Source: Oligoflexia bacterium (lineage in GTDB: Bacteria; Bdellovibrionota; UBA1018). From it: DNA of 64,000 bases. The notes beneath the pieces are model-generated. The model was not told the DNA's origin. It did not search any database and saw nothing but the letters and a program-made list of their open reading frames with translations. Below are positions 39,880-54,631 of this stretch, in pieces; positions within the stretch are counted from its first letter, which is position 1; every line of letters starts with the position of its first letter. The position numbers were made by a program, and so were the translations under genes. The stretch is taken from positions 288,001-352,000 of the forward strand of contig CAVWVI010000003.1 in the NCBI GenBank assembly GCA_963758495.1, in the 5' to 3' direction.

Positions 39880-41178
39880 CTAACACCGGACGGACTCCGG
39901 TTGTATCCTCGAGCTAAAGAACAGATTTCGCATACGAGGGTTTTCGGGAAATCGCACTTTTTCTAAGACTTTAGAGAATCTTACCCAATCAAAACTCCGT
40001 TTCTGACTTCGTCGATTTAGGTATTTGAAAAGCAATTTCTTCACTTCATGAATGAACTGATTGACTCGCTTCTCATTATCATTGATCGCAAAGTAGTTGA
40101 TGTACCCTTCTGTCACCGATTTCATTCGAGGAAGAAGGTTCTTATCGTGACGGTGATTTTGAATATGGCTTTTGAGTTCTCCTATTTTCTTGCGAAAACG
40201 CTTGGGACACGTGCGCCGTTTCACACGCCAGAACCTCTTGCTATCCTTCTTCCTAATTGAGATACCCCAAACATGAAGAAATCCCAAAAAGGTGAAGGTT
40301 GGCATTTCGGAACCTTTCAGAGCATAGCTGGCTGCGGTTCTTTGTCCGCATGCCACAATTTTAGTCTTCTCCTCATTGAGACTAATTCCAAATTTATTTA
40401 ACCTTTCTGTGAGTGATTTGAGAAATGTCTCTGCATCCACGAGGCTTTCGAAGGTGAAAACCGCATCGTCCGCGTAACGCACTATGCGTACTGTTCCTCG
40501 GTAAGACTTCTCGTTGATCCAGCAGAACCACATATCTATCACATAATGAAGGTATAAATTTGAGACCAGAGGTGAAAGAATTGAGCCCTGTGGAGAGCCT
40601 AATTCATTTCGCACTGGTATTCCTTTCTCATTCAAGGTGGGAGCTTTGAGTAGTTTCATAACTAATCTCAAGAACCTTTCGTCCGTTATCTTCATTTTGA
40701 GAAAACGAAGTAGTGGTTCGTGAGGGATTGTGTTGAAGTATTTTCGCAAATCAATGTCCAGTGCTGCAGCACATTTCCATCGCATCAGGTGCTCATTTAA
40801 GGCAATTAATGCCGTGTCACATCCCCTCTTGGGTCTGAATCCGTGGGAGCAATTCAGGAACCATGGTTCATATATTCTCTCAAGAATTCTTCGTACAGCT
40901 TCTTGCACAATTTTGTCTTCAAAACAAGCTATGGCAAGAGGTCTGGTACTCCCGTCAGCTTTCGGAATCTCTCGAATCCTAGAGGCTTGAGGATGATAAC
41001 TCCCTCTGCGAATTTTAGTTAGAAGACCTGTCAAATTCCCATTGAGATTCTTTCCGTATTCCTCCTTTGTTATTCCATCTATTCCCACAGCTTTGTTTCC
41101 ATCAAGGCTGTGATAACATTCGCGTAGGACTTCAAGATTAATAATATGTCCAAGGTTATTGAACACCGCCTTTCTATC
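39880..41178 (-). CDS. Group II intron reverse transcriptase/maturase, main part (first 25 codons displaced to 42735-42809)
   Basis: GIDG, IPKADG.TRPL, GSPQGSILSPL, YADD, FTFLGF; no endonuclease domain. Confidence 0.92.
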   Translation of the reverse strand, partial: DRKAVFNNLGHIINLEVLRECYHSLDGNKAVGIDGITKEEYGKNLNGNLTGLLTKIRRGSYHPQASRIREIPKADGSTRPLAIACFEDKIVQEAVRRILERIYEPWFLNCSHGFRPKRGCDTALIALNEHLMRWKCAAALDIDLRKYFNTIPHEPLLRFLKMKITDERFLRLVMKLLKAPTLNEKGIPVRNELGSPQGSILSPLVSNLYLHYVIDMWFCWINEKSYRGTVRIVRYADDAVFTFESLVDAETFLKSLTERLNKFGISLNEEKTKIVACGQRTAASYALKGSEMPTFTFLGFLHVWGISIRKKDSKRFWRVKRRTCPKRFRKKIGELKSHIQNHRHDKNLLPRMKSVTEGYINYFAINDNEKRVNQFIHEVKKLLFKYLNRRSQKRSFDWVRFSKVLEKVRFPENPRMRNLFFSSRIQPESVRC

Positions 41179-42724
41179 CTTTCTTTTACCCATTTATACC
41201 TATGTGTCATAGTACCAAAAATTGCTAAATAATCCTTCGAGTTAGCCCTTTCGAAGGAGGGAGCAATGGAAAAAAATTGGATTGCAGAAGAGCTGGCCGA
41301 AGTAGATTTTGGGGATGCTCGTCTCACCGCAAGATGCTTGCAAGTTGGCACAGATTTTCTGAGTTGTCCCACCGCTTCAACAAATAAGGCAAGTGGAAGC
41401 TGGGCTGGAGCAAAGGGGGCATATCGCTTTTTCGACAATGAAAAGGTAATGTGCGCCGAGATGTTGGAGATTCATGCCAAAAAGACAGCAGACAGAATTT
41501 CTCAACTCCATAAGCACCGACCTGTATTGGTTATTCAAGATACTACTGTTTTAAACTATGCAGCCTTTCAAAGTTTAGAAGGGGTGGGAACTTACGCGGC
41601 AAAAGTAAGGAAAACAAAAAAATCGAGTTATATAAAAGCTCTCATGATGCATTCGAGTTTTGCTATTCGGGAAGATGGGTTTCCTTTAGGGTTGCTTGAT
41701 CAAAAGCTCTACAATCAAAAAAGAAGAAGGAAGAAAAATATTCAACATCATCTTCCAATTCAAAAGAAGGATAGTTTCCGTTGGCTGGAATCAGCTCAAC
41801 ATATTTCTAAGTTCATAGATAGGGATCGTGCTTTAATACATGTCTGCGATCGTGAGGCGGATATTTTTGAATTTTTCGATGAAGTGAAAAAGTATAATCA
41901 TTTTTTCTTAGTAAGAGCTGCATCTGACAGAGTTATAGGTGAAAAGTATTGGAAAGCAGACGGACATCTTTGGGAAACAATGGGTGAGCAAGAATTGCAA
42001 GGATTAATCGAAGTAGATATTCCTGCAAAGAAGAAAGATCCGGCAAGAAAAGCAAGCTGTGAAGTTCGCTTTGAAACTGTTATATTTCCCCCTCCTTTCC
42101 GATCCGCAAACGTTAACGCAAAAAAGCTTGAAAAAGTAGCAGTACAAGCGATCTGGGTTAAAGAAGTAGGTGCTCCTCGGGGAGTAGAGCCATTGGAATG
42201 GATGCTCTTAACGAATATGCCGATATCTTCTTTCGAAGAAGCGTTAGAAAAAATAAACTACTATTCATTAAGATTTCAAATTGAGACCTATCATAAAATT
42301 CTCAAGTCTGGATGTCGCATTGAAGAGAATCGATTTGAAAAATCCGAGAATTTAAAAAAATGTCTAACGCTTAAAAGTATAGTCGCAATTCGTCTTTTTC
42401 AACTGACCTGGGAAGGTCGAGTAAACCCAGACAAACCATGCTCAGAAGTGCTTTCCGAATCTGAATGGAAGGCACTCTATTGCTATATTCACAAAGTAAC
42501 CGAAGCACCTAATACACCTCCCTCTACTCAAGAAGCTATCTTAGAAATTGCAAAGCTTGGGGGATTTCTTGCCAGGAAGCATGATGGCGAACCCGGACCA
42601 ATAGTGATTTGGAGAGGGTGGGAGGAATTAATGAGAATCAAACGCATGTATGAAATTTTTCATCACCTATTGCCATTAGATAATGGCCCCAAATGGAGCG
42701 GGGCGATATATGGGTAAAAGAAAG
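41179..42724 (+). mobile_element. IS4-family (IS50/Tn5-like) insertion sequence, 1546 bp
   Basis: 15-bp TIR ctttcttttacccat; 10-bp target duplication cctttctatc at 41169-41178 and 42725-42734. Confidence 0.95.
41266..42717 (+). CDS. IS4-family transposase
   Basis: W..EEL....FGD.RL, QDTT, DREAD, Y..RFQIE..HK.LKSGC (YREK), LGGFL.RK.DG.PG. Confidence 0.95.
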   Translation: MEKNWIAEELAEVDFGDARLTARCLQVGTDFLSCPTASTNKASGSWAGAKGAYRFFDNEKVMCAEMLEIHAKKTADRISQLHKHRPVLVIQDTTVLNYAAFQSLEGVGTYAAKVRKTKKSSYIKALMMHSSFAIREDGFPLGLLDQKLYNQKRRRKKNIQHHLPIQKKDSFRWLESAQHISKFIDRDRALIHVCDREADIFEFFDEVKKYNHFFLVRAASDRVIGEKYWKADGHLWETMGEQELQGLIEVDIPAKKKDPARKASCEVRFETVIFPPPFRSANVNAKKLEKVAVQAIWVKEVGAPRGVEPLEWMLLTNMPISSFEEALEKINYYSLRFQIETYHKILKSGCRIEENRFEKSENLKKCLTLKSIVAIRLFQLTWEGRVNPDKPCSEVLSESEWKALYCYIHKVTEAPNTPPSTQEAILEIAKLGGFLARKHDGEPGPIVIWRGWEELMRIKRMYEIFHHLLPLDNGPKWSGAIYG

Positions 42725-42734
42725 CCTTTCTATC

Positions 42735-42809
42735 CCCTCGCGATCTTTGCTCTACTCGGTCTAGTTTTGTTGGCAGGTCTAAGTGGGCCCTATGCTGAGT
42801 GGCTCGCAT
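42735..42809 (-). pseudogene. Displaced N-terminal 25 codons of the intron RT
   Basis: MRATQHRAHLDLPTKLDRVEQRSRG joins in frame to DRKAVFNNL once the IS and one target duplication are removed. Confidence 0.8.
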
Positions 42810-43514
42810 CCTGTTTCTCTTTTCCGATTGTTAGTTACTGGGGCCCTTCCCTCCACGGTCATTACTCGCTTCCCAGGTACTACAACCCCTCGGTCATCCC
42901 AAAGCTCATCACACCTCACTTAGGTTGCATCCGTTGTAAGGCATTACAGTATCCTACTGAAGTTTGGGACTTCCCAAGTTGACTCACTGGTCTCTCCACA
43001 CATGCCAGGCTCTTTGACTCCGCTGGGTCCCGAGAGTCTCGCTTTAACGACTGCCAGGATTTAGGCTTCCATCTTGTCAACGACGTCGCCCATTTCAGAA
43101 ATTCATCAAATTGTCGGAGCTCTTTCACTTCACGCTTTCGCATTCCGGCCTATGTGGTTCGCTCCATACGCTTGGTGCGCCCCGTTGCCGGGGCTGGTCA
43201 CCCAATGTTCGCTATGACATAGAGTAGCTACCTCCTTTGTCAGCAGGACTCACACCTGCTAGACCAGTGGCCCTTCGCTTGGCGCACTGACAATTTTGGA
43301 TATAATACGGGGGCGTGCCAGTCGCTACCTTTGGGCCTGTCTTATCGTTAGACGACCACGCTTCCTAATGGGCCTCATCCCCCATCCCAAGCAATCAGTA
43401 TCCCTTCCAGAGATCTTCCACTGACCTTCAGTTTGAACGTCCTACAAGGAGGAACAAATTCGGTCTTCAGGATACGCCTATTTTCCATGCGTAATCAGAT
43501 TACTTGAAATGTTT

Positions 43515-44558
43515 TCAAACGTCTTTATTTAGCATTTTACGAAATTGAGCTTTCTCCTCTTGTTGCTTTTCATAGTCATCTTGATAAGTTCCATTATTCT
43601 TAAGAAGGGCTATACTGAGTGCCGCAATTTTTCTAGCTAGAGCCCTTTTAGCGTCCTGATAAGGAATCTCTTTTCTTTGTTCTTCGTAATAATTTCGTAA
43701 GAACCCTTCACTTCTCATTGCACTTTCGGCTGCTCCTAAAAAAACTTCTTTTAGATCTGCCCTTCCATGAATTTTTTTATTTCCATAGATTTTTCCATCA
43801 CTCATTTGGATATGTCTTGCCAACATACAATAAGCCCAGAATTGGTGTTTATTCTTAAAACGGTGCGGTGTGCAAACTACAGCTGTGATAATACTTGCTC
43901 GAACCGTACTAATCCCGGGAATAGTCATGAGATTTTTAATAGGTTTATATTTTTTAGAATTACGCTGAAGAACCTCACGGTATTCTCGTTTTCTTTTCTC
44001 TAAACCATCAATCTGCCAATAAAGATTCTCAGCAACAAACCGTGCACTCTCATGAGACAGTTCTTTTAATCGGTCTCTCGTTTTTTCATAAAAATCTGTT
44101 TGTGATGTATCGATCGCCTCGGATCTAAATACTGCCTTCAGTCTATTCTTAGTTCGAATGATTTCTTCTACTAAGGCCAAATAGCCGTACACTAGAACCC
44201 TCAGCTGGATCCAGTGACTTTCATCATGATAAACGGCAACCAAATGCCCCGTTCTAAGTTCCTGAGCTAAATGTAGAGCATCTCTAAAGTCTGTTTTTGT
44301 TCCCTGTTTTTCAGCTACATAAACAGGATTACAAACTACCAGGTGATCTACCTCTTTTTTTAGTATGATATACAACCACTGAGCCAGATGCATTTCTTCA
44401 AATGTCAGGAACTTCTTCCCCTTAATCTTTCTTATGAATCCAAGTAAATTTGCCTCTGTAGTGGCAAAATTTTGGCGATCAATATTTTTCCCTTTTTCAT
44501 CCACGACTGCGACGGTTGTTGTTGCTGCATGTGCATCCATTCCAATATAATAGTTCAT
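43515..44558 (-). CDS. IS110-family recombinase/transposase
   Basis: YIGMDAH, KTDFRDA (RuvC-like DEDD domain), LMTIPGI, FWAYC......SDG; RBS aaggaggg. Confidence 0.92.
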   Translation of the reverse strand: MNYYIGMDAHAATTTVAVVDEKGKNIDRQNFATTEANLLGFIRKIKGKKFLTFEEMHLAQWLYIILKKEVDHLVVCNPVYVAEKQGTKTDFRDALHLAQELRTGHLVAVYHDESHWIQLRVLVYGYLALVEEIIRTKNRLKAVFRSEAIDTSQTDFYEKTRDRLKELSHESARFVAENLYWQIDGLEKRKREYREVLQRNSKKYKPIKNLMTIPGISTVRASIITAVVCTPHRFKNKHQFWAYCMLARHIQMSDGKIYGNKKIHGRADLKEVFLGAAESAMRSEGFLRNYYEEQRKEIPYQDAKRALARKIAALSIALLKNNGTYQDDYEKQQEEKAQFRKMLNKDV

Positions 44559-47541: not shown

Positions 47542-48654
47542 CTAAAGCTCTACGCGAAAATTCCACGCTCCATACCAAGAGGCTCCGAGGTCTACGCTGC
47601 CGTTATCCTTATTTCCAAACCGAGTTCCCTCGTAGACTGAGCGATCAAAGGAATAGCCCACTGAAAGCTCACTCTTGAGTTCCTTTGTTACAGGAAACCT
47701 CACTCCGATCGGAGCATGCATCTCATTGTAGTACATGCGATCCCCGGGATCAGGACGATTCTCACGGATGTAGGATTGTTGAGCCCACCTGTATCCAGTG
47801 AAGACTTGGATTTTCTGTGGATTCCCATACGCGATTTCAGCGTTGAGGGTGGGTCCAAAAATCCCTAGAGTAAACATCCAAGGCTGTCTGGGCATCCAAA
47901 TGATGGAGGTGAAAGGAAATCCAAACATCCCGATGAGGGTTTCTGTTTGATAAAGATAAATAAAGCCCGGAATCGGAACATAATTGCTAATTGGATTATT
48001 ATTTGAAAAGAACACCGTCAGCATCCAACGACTTCGCTCTGAGCTGCTCCAACTGTAAAAGGCACTCGCTCCAATTGTTGCCACGCCAAAATCTGCAAAA
48101 GGATGATCGCTTGCGGAACCTACACTGATTCTTCCGCCAATGAGCTTATCGTCTTCAAGTTTTCGGGAGTAAGAGCCTCCCAACTCTACTTTCCAAAGGT
48201 CCTGTGGCACCTCGATACCCGTACCCGAAAGGTTTTGTTCTTCTCCAAAATGAAGAGAGGTGCCGCCCAATGAGAGCGACACGCTATTTTTATCATCGAC
48301 ATAAACTGGCGTTTGAATCGTAAGGTGGTGCTGGTCCACATCACCTGGCACTTGCTCAGGCGTAATCCAACCTCCGTAAACAAGGGTTGGCCTTGATACA
48401 GGGAGAAGACCTAACCCACCGAACACGGCAAAACCCGGTACGGCCTTAGGAGGAAGTTTCGGTAAACTTTCTTTTGCTTCGATTTTTACTTGATCCCGAC
48501 AGTTCGGGGAAAGATCCGCTTCATGTTTTTGAAGACACCACAGAAGTAGTGGCCGAACATCGCTCCCCTGCGCGAACGCCGGATAAAGTAAAAAAAATAA
48601 TCCGAATGATCCAAATCCAAGAACCAATTGAGCTCGACTTGCTTTTATTTTCAA
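47542..48654 (-). CDS. Putative outer-membrane beta-barrel protein
   Basis: Signal peptide; amphipathic aromatic beta strands. Confidence 0.55.
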   Translation of the reverse strand: MKIKASRAQLVLGFGSFGLFFLLYPAFAQGSDVRPLLLWCLQKHEADLSPNCRDQVKIEAKESLPKLPPKAVPGFAVFGGLGLLPVSRPTLVYGGWITPEQVPGDVDQHHLTIQTPVYVDDKNSVSLSLGGTSLHFGEEQNLSGTGIEVPQDLWKVELGGSYSRKLEDDKLIGGRISVGSASDHPFADFGVATIGASAFYSWSSSERSRWMLTVFFSNNNPISNYVPIPGFIYLYQTETLIGMFGFPFTSIIWMPRQPWMFTLGIFGPTLNAEIAYGNPQKIQVFTGYRWAQQSYIRENRPDPGDRMYYNEMHAPIGVRFPVTKELKSELSVGYSFDRSVYEGTRFGNKDNGSVDLGASWYGAWNFRVEL

Positions 48655-49877
48655 GCCTCACTCTCCTCTGGAATCCTGGTGAATGCGATCCTCAACGGCG
48701 CACAATCCCCACTTTCATGAACGGCTCCTAAGTGAACTGCGTCTTTCCCAAACCTCAGATTCACTTGATCCAGAGCCTGAGTCAGTTTCTCCCGCCTTGG
48801 GTCTTCAAATAAAGACGGGGAATGCAAGGTCTCGGGCACCAGTCCAGTCAGCACAACACCCACGGCATAAATCGAACCTGCGGGTAGCCCCTTCCATAGC
48901 GTTCGGATGGCTTGGATCAATGCGATGGTGTCTTGGGTTTCCATCAGACCACAATGAGCCTTCCACGAGTCCTGCCCCTGGAACCGCACAAAGATTTGAA
49001 TTTTTGAAGCGTACAATCCCTCCTTGCGTAATCTCAATGCAGCCTTAGTGGTGAGCTTCTTCAAAACCTGCAAAGCACCTGGCTCATGACGAAGTTCAGG
49101 TGGGAGTACATGGGAATGGCCAATGCTCTTTTGCTCAGAAACGATTTCTATTCGATCCTCTCCACGAAGAAGATGCCACATCTGCTCTCCAACAATACTG
49201 CCCCAGGCATTTTTCATTTCAACAGCGGTAAGTGAGCAAAGGCGCTCCATATTGTAGATCTGCTTCGCATTCAATCTGGCTTCCATTTGAGCACCCACGC
49301 CCGTTAAATCTCGGAGCAACAGACCGTGTAAAATATGGGGCAGATCGTGCAACTGGATGACCGTAAATCCGTCAGGCTTGTGCATATCTGCGGCGATTTT
49401 GGCAAGATAACGATTGGGGCCGATACCAATGGAGCATTTTAACGAAGAGCCTACTTGATCCCGAATTGCTTTCTTAATTTTTACGGACAGTGCTTCTGCG
49501 ACCTTCACTTCCTGTTGTGTGCCGGTAAGACGACAAGCCATTTCATCAATTGAGCAAACGGCTTCAATGGGTATACAGGACTCTACCGTCTCCACAATTC
49601 GGTTATGGTATTTGATGTAGTTGCCGTGATCTCCCTCGATAAAGATCATCTTCGGACAAAGTCGTTTAGCTTCGCCGACCATCGTGCCAGTTTTGATACC
49701 GAACTTCTTGCCCTCGTAGCTTACGGCAATGCAGCAGGTCGTATCGGCAAGCAAGGGCACGACGGCGATGGGTTTCCCACGCAAAAAGGGGTTCATCTCC
49801 TGCTCAACAGAAGCAAAAAATGAGTTCATATCCAGGTAAAGCCACCGGACGAGTTGGGAAGGGTCTTTGGATTCCAT
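48651..49877 (-). CDS. dinB: Y-family DNA polymerase (DinB/Pol IV-like)
   Basis: LDMNSFFASVE, SYE....GIKTG, SIDE, AKIAADMHKPDG; probable start 49877. Confidence 0.9.
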   Translation of the reverse strand: MESKDPSQLVRWLYLDMNSFFASVEQEMNPFLRGKPIAVVPLLADTTCCIAVSYEGKKFGIKTGTMVGEAKRLCPKMIFIEGDHGNYIKYHNRIVETVESCIPIEAVCSIDEMACRLTGTQQEVKVAEALSVKIKKAIRDQVGSSLKCSIGIGPNRYLAKIAADMHKPDGFTVIQLHDLPHILHGLLLRDLTGVGAQMEARLNAKQIYNMERLCSLTAVEMKNAWGSIVGEQMWHLLRGEDRIEIVSEQKSIGHSHVLPPELRHEPGALQVLKKLTTKAALRLRKEGLYASKIQIFVRFQGQDSWKAHCGLMETQDTIALIQAIRTLWKGLPAGSIYAVGVVLTGLVPETLHSPSLFEDPRREKLTQALDQVNLRFGKDAVHLGAVHESGDCAPLRIAFTRIPEESEA

Positions 49878-49894
49878 GTGGACATCCCACTTTT

Positions 49895-51241
49895 TTATTG
49901 CGTGGGCAATCCCCTCTCGGACCATTTCACGGTGCCTCCATTCATGCTTCGCACATTTCTGTAGCCGAGAGATTTCAATAGAAGCATTCCAGAGAGTGAC
50001 ATGTTCCCACGATTGCATACCGTAACAATAGGAGTATTACGATCTTCAGGAAGTTCTCGAGCCCGTGCAACGATTCTTTCCAGGGGTACATTGATGGCTC
50101 CCAAAACGTGGGCCTCTTGATAAATCTCCGGATCACGCACATCGACGATCAGAGGTCTTTTTTCGTTCTGCAAAAGTTTGCTCACTTCCTCAATTTCGAC
50201 AGTATCAAAAGGGTTACGGGAATTATCAATCAGTGTTTTCAGCATAGAATCCGTTGGCACGGAAGCCACGGGTTCCTTTTTAAGATGGGCGAAGAGTTCG
50301 GGGAAGTGACGCACAAATGATGAGGCATATTTGAAGATGTTATCGGGAAAAATCACGACAACAATGGCGTCTGGTTGATCCTGGATTACTTTTAACGCAC
50401 CTGCCAGGGCCATTCCTGAACTAGGACCAGCAATGATACTTTCTTCGCGGTTGAGGCGAAGGCACATTGCGTAGGCTTCGTCATTTTGAACCTCAACCAA
50501 TTGGTTATATTCCTTCGGATTGAAAAATCGAGTCTGCTTCAACTGCTTGATTGAGCGAACTCCCGGAATATCGTGACCTTCGTTTGGATGAACGCCGATG
50601 ATCTGCACCTTTGAGTTTTTCTCTTTTAGAAAGCGCCCCGTTCCAGTAATCGTCCCGCACGTACCGAGCGCTGCAATGAGGTGGGTTACTTCCCCTTTTG
50701 TCTGTCTCCAAATTTCTGGACCCGTCGTCCGGTAATGTGCATTGGGATTCGCTTCGTTCTCATATTGATTCAGCATCTCAAATTCCGGATTTTTTTTTGC
50801 GGTATCCATCGCTAATGCGATTGCCCCCTCGGGAGCTCCCGGTGCTGGACAAAGGGTATCATCAAGCTCTATAACGTCGCATCCAATAAAACGGAGAAGC
50901 GCTCGCTTTTCCAGCGGGATGGCTGAGGAAAGAGGAGAACGCAATGGATAACCCTTTGCATTACCGACCATAGTTAGGCCGAGTCCTGTATTGCCTGAGG
51001 TAGGCTCAACCAATTTCTTCCCCGGCCCAATTCGACCGGACTCTTCAGCAGCTTTGATTAAATTTGCCGCAATTCTGTCCTTCACCGCACCAAAAGGGTT
51101 ATACCATTCAAGCTTAGCAAATAATTTCGCCTCCTTAAAGGAAACGACTCGATTCAAGCGAACCAAGGGCGTGGGGTTTTCCTCACTGGAAAGCATCTCT
51201 AAGACTGAATCAAATACTCGAACAGAAAGATCACTCTTCAT
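49895..51241 (-). CDS. Cysteine synthase (CysK/M-type PLP enzyme) fused to a rhodanese domain
   Basis: KLEWYNPFGAVKDR, EPTSGNTG, GTCGT, GPSSG; DVR....HVLGA, CNRGNMS; RBS ggaggt before 51241. Confidence 0.92.
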   Translation of the reverse strand: MKSDLSVRVFDSVLEMLSSEENPTPLVRLNRVVSFKEAKLFAKLEWYNPFGAVKDRIAANLIKAAEESGRIGPGKKLVEPTSGNTGLGLTMVGNAKGYPLRSPLSSAIPLEKRALLRFIGCDVIELDDTLCPAPGAPEGAIALAMDTAKKNPEFEMLNQYENEANPNAHYRTTGPEIWRQTKGEVTHLIAALGTCGTITGTGRFLKEKNSKVQIIGVHPNEGHDIPGVRSIKQLKQTRFFNPKEYNQLVEVQNDEAYAMCLRLNREESIIAGPSSGMALAGALKVIQDQPDAIVVVIFPDNIFKYASSFVRHFPELFAHLKKEPVASVPTDSMLKTLIDNSRNPFDTVEIEEVSKLLQNEKRPLIVDVRDPEIYQEAHVLGAINVPLERIVARARELPEDRNTPIVTVCNRGNMSLSGMLLLKSLGYRNVRSMNGGTVKWSERGLPTQ

Positions 51242-51342
51242 TTTATTTTGACCTCCATTGATCAAGCTCCAGTCACTCCACGCATAACCCGGTATGCCAC
51301 CATACCCGGCTTTAAAGGCTTTCCGCAATAAAGATTAGCAAA

Positions 51343-51690
51343 TCACGGCGAAGAGTGGTGTCGGGTGTTGTCTTCCTCTTGGCCTGAGTTGTTTGCCCTT
51401 AGCTCAAGAGGAAGCTCGACAATGAAATTCGATCCTTTCCCAACTTCGCTCTCTACCCAAATTTTTCCACCATGAGCTTCAGCAAGCTCCCTTGCGATGT
51501 ATAACCCCAGTCCCAACCCTCCATAAAAACGTGAATCAACCGCTCGCTCAAATCGTTCAAAAATTCTTGTTTGATCCTGTCTTGAAATTCCTGGACCATA
51601 GTCACGGACAGAAAGAATCGAATTCTCGAACATCAGCGCGCCGAAAGGCTCGTCACGTAAAATCAAAGGAAGAGCAATGAGAGATTTCAC
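51343..51690 (-). pseudogene. Deleted histidine kinase remnant (GAF end joined to partial HATPase)
   Basis: D.GPGI..FERF..GGLGLGL..HGG present; H-box and N-box absent. Confidence 0.7.
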
Positions 51691-51735
51691 TCCTAGGGCA
51701 CGAAAAACCTCAAGATACTTCGGGTCTTTCTATAC

Positions 51736-53265
51736 CTATTGCTCTCTTAAATTAATTGGACAGACACAAAGAGCATCCGCCCTGGCATCGGTTATCTCTT
51801 GGCCCAGGTCTCTCTTTGCTCGTCGAGCATCCACAAGATCTTGATAATCCATTTGGATTTGAGGAGCATAAAGAGGGGTCATATTGAATGGATTGAGTCC
51901 CTGAGCTAATAGCCCTCCGGAAGTCGGCAAGAAACAACTGAGTAAAGGAGCTAATCTTCGGGTTTTATTCCGCGATGGTTGCTCAACAATAGACTTCATT
52001 AAAACATGAAAAGCTTCACCCATCTTCTCCGCTTTCATGAGTTCTACGATGTGTTTTTCCGCTCCTTCCCCGCTTTCTCCTTCTGGAGCTTCTACAGCAG
52101 ACTTCAAGCCTTTGAGAAGCCACAGGTTAACAGTTTCACAAAAGCGCTCCCATCGAAAATCCACGTCTCGTTCGGCACCCATTTCAACGTTTGCATGCAC
52201 AAAAAAGATGTAAAAACGCCAAAAATCCGCAGGTAGAGTCGCTAATGCTTCCTCAAGCCAGATGCCCGTGCCCGTTGACTTTGAGCAAATTCCGCCTTCA
52301 TAGATAAAAACCTCGTTGGGTAACAGTTTCCAATTTTCAACTGAATACCCTCTGTTACTCGCCAAAAGAAGGGCGGGAAAAAGAGCCCCATAAAATGGAG
52401 TGCCATCCATTCCTAGAAAAAAATGATGTCGAGTATCAGGACTCTTCCAGTAACGATCTTCCATGTTAGAACCTTGTTTCGCCAACATCGAAACTTTCGC
52501 CAAAAGAGAATCGACCCAGGAGTACACCGTTTTACCCGGTAGGCTAGCCAAAGGAATTCCCCATTGAGTATCTCGAGTGATGCAAACATTGGGATTTTCA
52601 ACAAGGGTACGCCGAACTCTCTCTGATACCTCAGCTTGGTCCTTAGCTGGAGCTTGAGCGTGATTCACAATCTTGTCTTTGAAAAGATCCATTCTAAAGA
52701 AAAGATGAGGCTCTTCTCGCCACTCGACGCTCCCTGCACATACGGCACATCGACCCTCTATTACTTTGTCAGATTCAACTAAACGAGCACAGTCTTTCTT
52801 ATTGTTACACTGATTACCGTAGGTTCTCCCTCTACAGTAAGGGCAAGTCCCTTCCAAAAACCGATCAGGCAAGTGATGCTGACAGCGAGTGCACCAAGCT
52901 ATTTTCTGAGTCCCAGAAGTAACCACTTCGCGATCGACAAGGTCTTGGATGAGTTCTTGAACAAATTGAGCATGAAAAGGATCTTGAGTTCTTCCAAAGT
53001 GATCAAATGAAAGCTCTAACTTATTTAAGAGTGGAAGTGTTGCTTCATACTTCGAATCAAGCAATTGTTTGGGAGTTATACCATACCCGTGAGCAACATA
53101 CTCACTTCTTGCTCCATGCTCATCGGCACCACAAAGAAAAAAGACTTCTTCTCCACTCATGCGATGAAACCGTGCACAAACATCCGCGAAAAGCATCGGG
53201 ACACAATTGTGGAGTCCAGGAATATCGTACAAATAAGGCCAGCCTGCACTCACAAAGTGAATCAT
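51736..53265 (-). CDS. Methionyl-tRNA synthetase paralogue with altered HIGH/KMSKS motifs and shortened C-terminus
   Basis: ADV.ARF.R, G.DEHG, F.RT, Zn knuckles, ITRD..WGIP, VYSW.D; HIGH position reads GLHN, KMSKS reads ICSKS. Confidence 0.82.
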   Translation of the reverse strand: MIHFVSAGWPYLYDIPGLHNCVPMLFADVCARFHRMSGEEVFFLCGADEHGARSEYVAHGYGITPKQLLDSKYEATLPLLNKLELSFDHFGRTQDPFHAQFVQELIQDLVDREVVTSGTQKIAWCTRCQHHLPDRFLEGTCPYCRGRTYGNQCNNKKDCARLVESDKVIEGRCAVCAGSVEWREEPHLFFRMDLFKDKIVNHAQAPAKDQAEVSERVRRTLVENPNVCITRDTQWGIPLASLPGKTVYSWVDSLLAKVSMLAKQGSNMEDRYWKSPDTRHHFFLGMDGTPFYGALFPALLLASNRGYSVENWKLLPNEVFIYEGGICSKSTGTGIWLEEALATLPADFWRFYIFFVHANVEMGAERDVDFRWERFCETVNLWLLKGLKSAVEAPEGESGEGAEKHIVELMKAEKMGEAFHVLMKSIVEQPSRNKTRRLAPLLSCFLPTSGGLLAQGLNPFNMTPLYAPQIQMDYQDLVDARRAKRDLGQEITDARADALCVCPINLREQ

Positions 53266-54446
53266 TGTTCATCTCTCCTATAATTTCCAGGTCTGCTATA
53301 AACAGCTTTTGCGATTTCTTTTACTGCATTTACGGCCATTTCAACATCTTGATGAGTACTCGACCAGCCCAAGCTGAATCGAACTGTTCCTTGATCTTGA
53401 GTGCCCAAGTTCTGATGAATGAGCGGCGAACAGTGGATACCAGTACGCACCATAATTCCAAATTTTTTGCCCAGCATCTGTCCCACCTCAGCGGTATCCA
53501 GTGCCTTCAGACTCATGGATGTAATGGCTACTTTAGCTTCGGCTTCGGGCCCATGAATAGTAACTCCATCAATACCTTGAAGCTGCTCCATTAAGAGTCG
53601 GTTGAGTTTTACCTCATGCTCACGAAATACTTCGACCCCTGTTGTTAAAATATGCTCCACTCCAGCCAATAGTCCTGCAAGTCCAACCATATTGGGAGTG
53701 CCAGACTCATATCGCTCGGGTCGGGTGAGGGGTTGCTCTAAGCTTTCTGAATGCGAACCGTTTCCTCCTTCACGGAGGGGTTCCAAATCAAGTCCTGAAC
53801 GAAGGAATAATCCTCCCGTTCCAGGAAGACCCAAAAGACTTTTGTGCCCAGTAAAAGCAAACATGTCAATTCCCAGCTCCTCCACATTCACTGGAAATGC
53901 TCCTGCAGTTTGCGCCCCATCTACAAGAAGAGGAATTCCCAATTCTCGAGTTTTACGGGAAATCTCCTGAATGGGTTGGAGAGTGCCCAAAACATTGGAT
54001 GCATGAACACACGCAATCAATCGGGTTCGAGGATTCACTGCCTTGACTAAGTCGTCAGGAGAAACCTCACCTCGGGAATTACTTTTTACAATGGTAACAT
54101 CAATCTCACGGGTTCTGCGTAAACTCCAAAGTGGGCGTAGCAAAGCATTATGTTCGAGATCCGTCACAACAACGTGATCCCCCTTGCGGAGGTAACCTTT
54201 CAACGCCAAATTCAAGGCGTCTGTAGAATTCGCAGTAAAGATTAAATTTGACGGATCCTTAATCCCAAGAAGCTGCGACAATTTAGAACGCAACCTGACA
54301 AGAATACGTTCCGACTCTTGTGCCTTAACGTAACTGCCCCGAGCTGGACTCGCTCCCCCATGGCGCATGAATTTCTCTACAGCTTGATAAACACTCTCAG
54401 GCTTGGGAAAACTCGTAGCTGCATTATCTAGATAGACCTCACTCAT
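53262..54446 (-). CDS. Group II cysteine desulfurase / selenocysteine lyase-like class V aminotransferase
   Basis: YLDNAATSFPKP, EHNA, DGAQ, TGHK, RTGIHC; ATGA overlap with the MetRS paralogue. Confidence 0.92.
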   Translation of the reverse strand: MSEVYLDNAATSFPKPESVYQAVEKFMRHGGASPARGSYVKAQESERILVRLRSKLSQLLGIKDPSNLIFTANSTDALNLALKGYLRKGDHVVVTDLEHNALLRPLWSLRRTREIDVTIVKSNSRGEVSPDDLVKAVNPRTRLIACVHASNVLGTLQPIQEISRKTRELGIPLLVDGAQTAGAFPVNVEELGIDMFAFTGHKSLLGLPGTGGLFLRSGLDLEPLREGGNGSHSESLEQPLTRPERYESGTPNMVGLAGLLAGVEHILTTGVEVFREHEVKLNRLLMEQLQGIDGVTIHGPEAEAKVAITSMSLKALDTAEVGQMLGKKFGIMVRTGIHCSPLIHQNLGTQDQGTVRFSLGWSSTHQDVEMAVNAVKEIAKAVYSRPGNYRRDEQ

Positions 54447-54571
54447 TTTTTCCCCTTTACTCGCAGAACTCTTATTAAAAAGAGTTACGCCGCACGTTAT
54501 AAATGGATTACTGCCTTGTGACAAGTCTTATATCAGAATTTTCAAATTTCAAAAATCAGTTGCTCGTCCTC

Positions 54572-54631
54572 TTCATGAACACCTTATTCATGAACACCTT
54601 ATTCATGAACACCTTATTCATGAACGCCTTA
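54572..54631. repeat. Tandem repeat, 4 x 15 bp
   Basis: ttcatgaacacctta x3 plus ttcatgaacgcctta. Confidence 0.92.

Follow-up and report, generated by a model that had tools for sequence, protein, structure and literature searches.

A class II cysteine desulfurase and a methionyl-tRNA synthetase paralogue form an undescribed two-gene module in an Oligoflexia bacterium

What is the role of a gene that databases name a methionyl-tRNA synthetase (MetRS), when its signature motifs are altered and it directly follows a cysteine desulfurase gene? The question is raised by a 64,000 nt stretch of an Oligoflexia bacterium genome (GenBank assembly GCA_963758495.1, contig CAVWVI010000003.1, positions 288,001 to 352,000), termed here the window, in whose own positions coordinates are given. 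An earlier note, made from the sequence alone, had proposed that these two genes, with a downstream cysteine synthase-rhodanese fusion, might belong to an undescribed pathway of sulfur or selenium transfer or ligation. The pair is a real, undescribed two-gene module, consisting of the following genes, which overlap by ATGA as the note had observed.

53262..54446, minus strand: class II cysteine desulfurase of the TIGR01977 family, core gene 1 (ATG at 54446 to TGA at 53262; 394 aa)
51736..53265, minus strand: MetRS-derived protein, core gene 2 (ATG at 53265; 509 aa; PF09334, 280 bits)

The literature covered, which took in few subscription papers and did not extend to supplementary paralogue tables (PMC5388404; bioRxiv 2025.08.22.671884), gave no account of a desulfurase paired with a MetRS paralogue. 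Nor is the pair described in the passages covered of PMC5388404 and PMC9437257, two reviews that deal with synthetase paralogues, and the Atlas has only generic names for the proteins.

The evidence for a module comes from the constancy of the pairing. Locus scans yielded 13 and 17 loci, 30 in all and 27 distinct after removing three duplicates; two of the 30 begin inside the paralogue and so have no upstream DNA. A desulfurase gene was found directly upstream, on the same strand, in every one of the 28 loci with upstream DNA (26/26 distinct), the gap between the two genes being -4 to +33 nt in 24 of the 26 measured, and the conservation of the neighbourhood, put forward earlier as a check, was thereby borne out. 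The flanks of the pair are unrelated among loci, and the source records include Myxococcales, Gammaproteobacteria, Deltaproteobacteria, Planctomycetota and Melainabacteria, spanning several phyla. Trees of the two proteins had 18 of 19 splits in common over 22 pairs (Mantel r 0.87), once duplicates, one copy with a frameshift and five incomplete loci had been set aside; at the level of sequence, this agreement shows co-inheritance, not binding. No family members were found in plasmids, phages or viral contigs. Searches of 40 relatives and of 400 further genomes from a sample of the phylum did not find the pair, the eight other strong matches in the latter being canonical MetRS, so the pair is, as judged from this distribution, a rare and horizontally spread two-gene cassette. 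One locus, L003 of genome G043, has a record labelled as an archaeon yet carries an F-type ATP synthase, PriA, MnmA and an E. coli-type MetRS that are all bacterial in type, such that the record is probably mislabelled; IscS and IscA genes stand back to back with its pair.

A homologue search returned 114 proteins, 78 of which form a family at 40-100% identity to the window protein, after which identity falls to 36% or less; residue counts below include only members having a residue at the column concerned. All the motifs listed in the earlier note were found in the sequence.

53206..53217, minus strand: GLHN replacing HIGH (residues 17-20), with His19 at the glycine position (ungapped register)
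52495..52497, minus strand: Lys257 replacing MetRS Tyr260 in the side-chain pocket (register from the alignment with E. coli MetRS)
52276..52290, minus strand: ICSKS replacing KMSKS (residues 326-330), including Cys327 (family alignment)
51757..51768, minus strand: C-terminal CVCP (residues 500-503), including Cys500 and Cys502, a predicted persulfide-carrying tail (family alignment)

To these are added GMDGTPFYGALFP, residues 285-297, in place of the usual GKDI..FH...WP pocket, and the eight cysteines of the zinc knuckles, which are all present. The alterations recur throughout the family: His19 is found in 70/70 members covered, Cys327 and Ser330 in 78/78, Lys329 in 77/78, Cys502 in 73/73 and Cys500 in 73/74. 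Lys257 is equally constant (78/78), whereas 35 of the 36 other search matches have Tyr at this position. Asp48 and Arg53 (each 74/74) and Trp250, Asp287, Tyr292 and Asn317 (each 78/78) are invariant, the CP1 domain and both zinc knuckles are conserved, and variation within GLHN is confined to Gly17 (60/70) and Asn20 (66/70). Trp9 of the pocket, in contrast, is no alteration, having come down from archaeal-type MetRS. The equivalence of GLHN and HIGH follows from aligning the protein without gaps to P0079, the closest canonical MetRS (PHFGN against PGLHN); a register making His19 the last HIGH histidine was rejected on the basis of this alignment and the start of a helix at residue 18. A profile search found no high-scoring fused form among the best 150 representatives, and the paralogue had no PADLOC match.

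One explanation would be a further methionine-tRNA ligase, perhaps one that resists inhibitors, or else a MetRS copy in decay; tRNA-Met charging and decay were the outcomes that the earlier note had named as undoing its proposal. Decay is contradicted by the family-wide occurrence of the altered motifs and by pN values far under pS in all six pairs tested, for instance 0.121 against 0.797 between the paralogues of the window and L014, and 0.016 against 0.291 between those of L002 and L016; these sequence comparisons mark the motifs as belonging to a family under purifying selection. In its favour are a single degenerate member, P0250, and a one-base frameshift within an A run of the paralogue in L006 (7234-7237) and L020, which may be real or an assembly error. 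As for a second ligase, divergent resistant MetRS paralogues are known (PMC5388404) and the database name is consistent with such a role, yet the protein scores 260 against both TIGR00398 (cut-off 336) and PRK00133 (cut-off 587). It possesses the Rossmann fold with CP1 zinc knuckles; the canonical HIGH glycine and KMSKS are absent, a His occupying the glycine position and a Cys that of the Met, while Lys329 and Ser330 are kept. In MetRS, Tyr260 and His301 line the methionine pocket and Asn391, Arg395 and Trp461 read the anticodon (PMC10535265). The first two are replaced by Lys257 and Tyr292, each in 78/78 members. At the column of E. coli Trp461, 81/81 members have a gap, whereas 261 of 285 other MetRS-type proteins have Trp there; Asn391 is replaced as well, bearing out the shortened anticodon region noted earlier; Arg is found at the Arg395 column in 18/81 members, where the alignment is uncertain. 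The host has a canonical metG elsewhere (C3:130918-132549), as the earlier note had recommended checking, and another PF09334 gene is present in 14/14 carrier genomes, albeit fragmented in G042 and, in G043 and G050, truncated where the contig stops. Because a canonical metG is present elsewhere and the anticodon determinants have been lost, the paralogue is, by its sequence features, not a tRNA-Met ligase, the database label is a mis-annotation, and a second or decaying MetRS is barely credible as an explanation.

Two observations concern other MetRS genes. In the host's canonical metG (L031:1419-3050) the HIGH motif is HVGW, its final residue being Trp, and several relatives carry an extra 650 aa MetRS-like protein (L052:2113-4080, L053:1635-3587) in which HIGH and KMSKS are intact, accompanied by an insertion of around 60 aa and an altered pocket segment.

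The paralogue might instead act on tRNA or aminoacyl-tRNA through the acceptor-side domain comprising CP1 and the zinc knuckles, either thiolating a nucleotide or employing its thiol or persulfide in the modification or removal of the bound amino acid. Conservation of CP1 and both knuckles and a MetRS fold match across residues 1-479 would fit such an activity, tRNA is present in every host, as would suit a stand-alone cassette, and a blocked adenine pocket would be appropriate to a pre-activated aminoacyl-tRNA. However, the Trp461 column is a gap in every member and Asn391 is lost, and PyrN, a MetRS-derived hydrazine synthetase, keeps two zinc knuckles yet uses no tRNA (bioRxiv 2025.08.22.671884), making an action on tRNA unlikely, though it is the strongest of the alternatives. 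The specific proposal that the pair replaces MnmA was rejected, as an MnmA match is present in 12 of the 14 carriers, the window's own genome included. Replacement of methionine synthesis was similarly rejected: MetH is present in 10/14 carrier genomes, and the host has MetE.

The invariant residues of the desulfurase include the following two.

53430..53432, minus strand: codon of Cys339, the persulfide-forming cysteine of the RTGIHCS class II signature (invariant in the alignment of paired copies; aligns with the SufS catalytic cysteine motif)
53841..53843, minus strand: codon of Lys202, the PLP-binding lysine (invariant in the same alignment)

Along with these, H99, D176, Q179, R334 and R356 are invariant across the 26 paired copies, and by sequence the enzyme is a class II desulfurase with all catalytic residues intact. 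It scores 433.5 bits against TIGR01977, over the cut-off of 377, and falls under the cut-offs of SufS, CsdA and the SclA model NF040779 (350.7 bits, cut-off 525); its PADLOC matches to SspA and DndA are those of a general homologue only. All 17 locus-verified desulfurases fall in one clade of 86 within a 136-sequence tree (support 0.70), the 88-member parent clade having a support of 0.998.

TIGR01977 is the best match for all 26 paired enzymes and the SclA model the next best. Since SclA prefers selenocysteine (bioRxiv 2020.02.07.939272), it could be selenium that is moved, with the PLP enzyme acting as a selenocysteine lyase and its partner capturing or inserting the selenium. SelD is over its cut-off in 7 of the 14 carriers, but was not found in the window's own genome (92% complete) or in the six others. 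The score of the window enzyme is well short of the SclA cut-off, it has Asn at the SclA His100 position (a weak marker), and the occasional neighbours of the pair are cysteine or methionine genes. By cut-off and selD context the window desulfurase is not SclA, and the selenium part of the earlier proposal is improbable and weaker than the sulfur part.

A class II desulfurase needs an acceptor specific to it (PMC8300815). Neighbouring genes were examined by scanning 99 of 151 candidates with Pfam, among which no SufE, SufU or TusA gene was found, and TusA was not found in the host genome, which is 92% complete. No partner other than the paralogue is constant, and the paralogue's mobile tail carries an invariant cysteine; persulfide may be inferred to flow from Cys339 to Cys502.

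How did this putative acceptor arise? A profile search of 1.84 billion representatives was followed by a sister-alignment search, which added only P0391; together they identified seven sisters (P0081, P0248, P0249, P0391, P0281, P0289 and P0317), each having G[IL]HN, CSKS and a cysteine in its tail. These constitute two deeper groups whose pocket residue differs; the second zinc knuckle is altered in three of the proteins, and four have a single tail cysteine. In a 76-sequence tree the family groups with its sisters in a single clade (0.999) that sits within the archaeal-type MetRS. Of 352 aligned proteins, 77 have both His19 and Cys327, 274 have neither and 1 has just one of them, while a cysteine within the last 25 residues is found in 70/70 full-length members, 7/7 sisters and 29/278 others.

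Structure models of the paralogue reach a pLDDT of 90 and 93, with residues 503-509 under 50; a deeper alignment gave higher confidence for the CSKS loop and no gain for the tail. Residues 1-479 align to residues 5-547 of E. coli MetRS (Z 32), so the cysteine tail is a continuation of the C-terminal peptide with which MetRS folds back against its catalytic domain. Like archaeal and eukaryotic MetRS (PF09334; 1RQG, 5GL7, 1QQT; Z 31-32), the paralogue has a Rossmann core, two zinc knuckles and equivalents of Asp52, Arg233, Trp253 and Asp296. Unlike them, it has GLHN, xCSKS, Lys for Tyr260, Tyr for His301, no Asn391 or Trp461 segment, a new cysteine tail and a fixed desulfurase partner. A side chain at the HIGH glycine would crowd adenine. 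HIGH and KMSKS contact adenine or phosphates (PMC5919687, PMC6957218), and in PyrN the HLGH and KFSTG motifs form the adenosine pocket with the Phe459 main chain, further adenosine contacts being Ser138, Gly418, Asp420 and Asn449 and the glutamate side chain being bound by Arg390 and Arg425 (bioRxiv 2025.08.22.671884). By alignment, nucleotide contacts are kept in the paralogue, because Gly418, Asp420 and Asn449 align with its conserved Gly285, Asp287 and Asn317, and Ser138 with the conserved Ser6 or its neighbours. Phe459 aligns with Cys327, so that by homology to PyrN His19 and Cys327 would lie in one pocket, and Arg390 aligns one residue before the Lys257 position.

The hydrazine synthetases (PyrN, Spb40; 9L8V) are among the closest known systems considered: they too are MetRS-derived, keep zinc knuckles, have a re-tuned pocket, act independently of tRNA and were matched by Foldseek. 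In contrast to the paralogue, PyrN retains the HLGH and KFSTG motifs and depends on a cupin together with an N-hydroxylase, and two hydrazine-synthetase-like proteins fall in a clade separate from that of the family and its sisters. No cupin or N-hydroxylase was detected in the paralogue or among the 99 scanned neighbours, while the control proteins L037 and L051 show them; by the features tested, the pair is not a hydrazine synthetase (PMC8664883, PMC12376268). Of these controls, L051 (G048:C70:17500-22500) has a MetRS-like gene between lysine/ornithine monooxygenase and PLP decarboxylase genes, resembling a hydrazine synthetase locus, in a genome that also holds L008. L037 (1096-2958), from a same-family relative, encodes a PyrN-like cupin-MetRS fusion between PLP decarboxylase-like and FAD oxidoreductase-like genes.

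Taken together, these features point, with about an even chance of being right, to a dedicated sulfur relay in which the desulfurase passes sulfur from cysteine to the paralogue's tail and thence to a small amino-acid-like substrate, without tRNA charging. A persulfide would form on Cys339 of the desulfurase and be passed to Cys502 on the mobile tail, which would play the part that SufE, SufU and CsdE play for other class II desulfurases. The tail would then swing to what had been the adenine pocket, in which a thiol or metal centre might be made up of His19 and Cys327 along with Cys500, and sulfur would be placed on an alpha-amino-acid-type substrate held by Asp48, Arg231 and Trp250, probably having an acidic side chain that faces Lys257. 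Signals of ATP use are mixed, the ribose and adenine contacts being kept and HIGH remodelled; we lean slightly towards retained adenylate-type activation, with a thiocarboxylate-like product of the kind known from LarE, over ATP-independent transfer.

Several points weigh against the relay. Ordinary adenylation is disfavoured by the His that takes the place of the HIGH glycine and by the absence of the motif's first histidine, and the 99 scanned neighbours included no gene pointing to a substrate or product. The combination of His19, Cys327 and the tail arose once, in a single clade, such that its co-occurrence is not repeated evidence, and the tail is of low confidence in the structure models. 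The desulfurase's family contains a selenocysteine-specific lyase. Where the family has Lys257, the sister groups have Asp, Asn or Arg, a variation that suggests, from these sequences, a common chemistry on different side chains. The earlier idea of sulfur transfer or ligation is upheld as far as a conserved, repurposed paralogue with its own desulfurase is concerned, ligation being only a possible activity because an invariant His replaces the HIGH glycine.

The same residues could serve otherwise, His19, Cys327, Cys500 and Cys502 holding an iron-sulfur cluster built by the desulfurase, in a sensor or scaffold that inserts no sulfur. Three conserved cysteines and a histidine would fit this, a desulfurase-fed tri-cysteine cluster is known in Thermotoga LarE (PMC9283937), and the pair of L003 adjoins IscS and IscA. 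Yet four sisters have one tail cysteine only and one family member is without Cys500, the strictly conserved amino-acid pocket implies a bound substrate, and a cluster would also be compatible with the sulfur relay; a cluster without sulfur insertion is accordingly rather improbable, a shade more so than action on tRNA.

Sulfur insertases fed by a desulfurase offer precedents for the relay. LarE, MnmA, ThiI, TtuA and DndC-type sulfur insertases are PP-loop enzymes. In LarE, MnmA/StuJ with StuS, ThiI, TtuA, and DndC/SspD with DndA/SspA, a desulfurase feeds a Rossmann-like enzyme with conserved cysteines, as described for LarE (PMC9283937) and StuS with StuJ (PMC5518548). In the paralogue Cys327, Cys500 and Cys502 are conserved and the partner is fixed, and the pair is proposed to work like the LarE, TtuA and MnmA type, both the proximity of these cysteines and sulfur transfer being only predicted; the paralogue differs in being derived from a synthetase. 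No THUMP, Dnd or Ssp partners were seen among the scanned neighbours, and by the features tested the pair is not a Dnd/Ssp phosphorothioation system. MshC and GluQ keep canonical ATP motifs. Like the paralogue, they are duplicated class I synthetases without anticodon reading that are used outside translation (PMC9437257), but they derive from CysRS and GluRS and have no desulfurase partner. SufS-SufE/SufU, CsdA-CsdE and SclA (EF2568; TIGR01977) resemble the pair in comprising a class II desulfurase that needs a dedicated acceptor (PMC8300815), which here would be a 509 aa synthetase derivative instead of a small carrier.

Were the sulfur relay correct, a synthetase scaffold would have become a sulfur-handling enzyme and a novel kind of class II desulfurase acceptor, pointing to an unrecognised sulfur metabolite. 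In the hydrazine synthetases, which also derive from MetRS, the ATP motifs are retained and amino acids are transferred; here the most invariant class I residue has given way to a fixed His, and the family has moved with one desulfurase lineage across phyla. A bolder extension, possible but on balance doubtful, is that an archaeal-type MetRS has been rebuilt as a new class of sulfur-inserting enzyme with a His/Cys centre where adenine used to bind, a swinging tail, a private desulfurase and a thio-amino-acid metabolite, the sisters being tuned to different side chains.

Do the genes downstream of the pair belong to the module?

51343..51690, minus strand: HATPase_c remnant, outside the module (PF02518 over residues 24-96 only)
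49895..51241, minus strand: cysteine synthase-rhodanese fusion, a local neighbour and not core (PALP and Rhodanese domains; 448 aa)

The fusion does follow on the same strand, as the earlier note had stated, although its start is most likely the ATG at 51241, which has an upstream ribosome-binding site, rather than the TTG at 51328. Neither was found in other loci: the 30 loci, several with little downstream sequence, gave no orthologue of the fusion, no match in the 13 other carrier genomes extends into its rhodanese half, and no counterpart of the remnant occupies the corresponding position in the other loci. The fusion falls in its own Atlas clusters and has a GC content at third codon positions of 0.46, against 0.38-0.39 in the pair. 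The caveat that the third gene might be unrelated, given the kinase remnant in between, was right: the third gene is not conserved, and therefore a persulfide relay including the rhodanese is not part of the core, which by this comparative evidence is two genes. That all three genes form one pathway, with the fusion as an obligatory relay member, is very improbable, even with their common strand and close spacing and the presence of cysteine or methionine genes beside the pair in two other distinct loci. Directly 3' of the pair in L022 (11620-13336) are genes for a small heavy-metal-binding protein and a CysE-like protein and a C-terminal CysK piece, and L023 has a Cys/Met PLP enzyme gene upstream; these run counter to a wholly chance neighbour and may reflect cysteine supply. 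A DinB/UmuC-like polymerase gene (48651-50018) lies directly 3' of the fusion on the same strand.

Upstream of the pair is one further feature.

54496..54524, minus strand: probable sigma-70 promoter TTGTCA-17-TATAAC (by-eye reading of the alignment with L014)

Both boxes and their spacing are repeated in L014 in this by-eye alignment, and the promoter scanner did not list the site. No Rfam elements were found near the pair. A 15 bp tandem repeat in four copies (54572-54631) lies upstream of the probable promoter and is not present in other loci. Elsewhere in the window, 39880-44558 holds a group II intron reverse transcriptase and an intron RNA domain (43008-43252) with a Tn5/IS4-type transposase between them, and an IS110 transposase adjoins this region.

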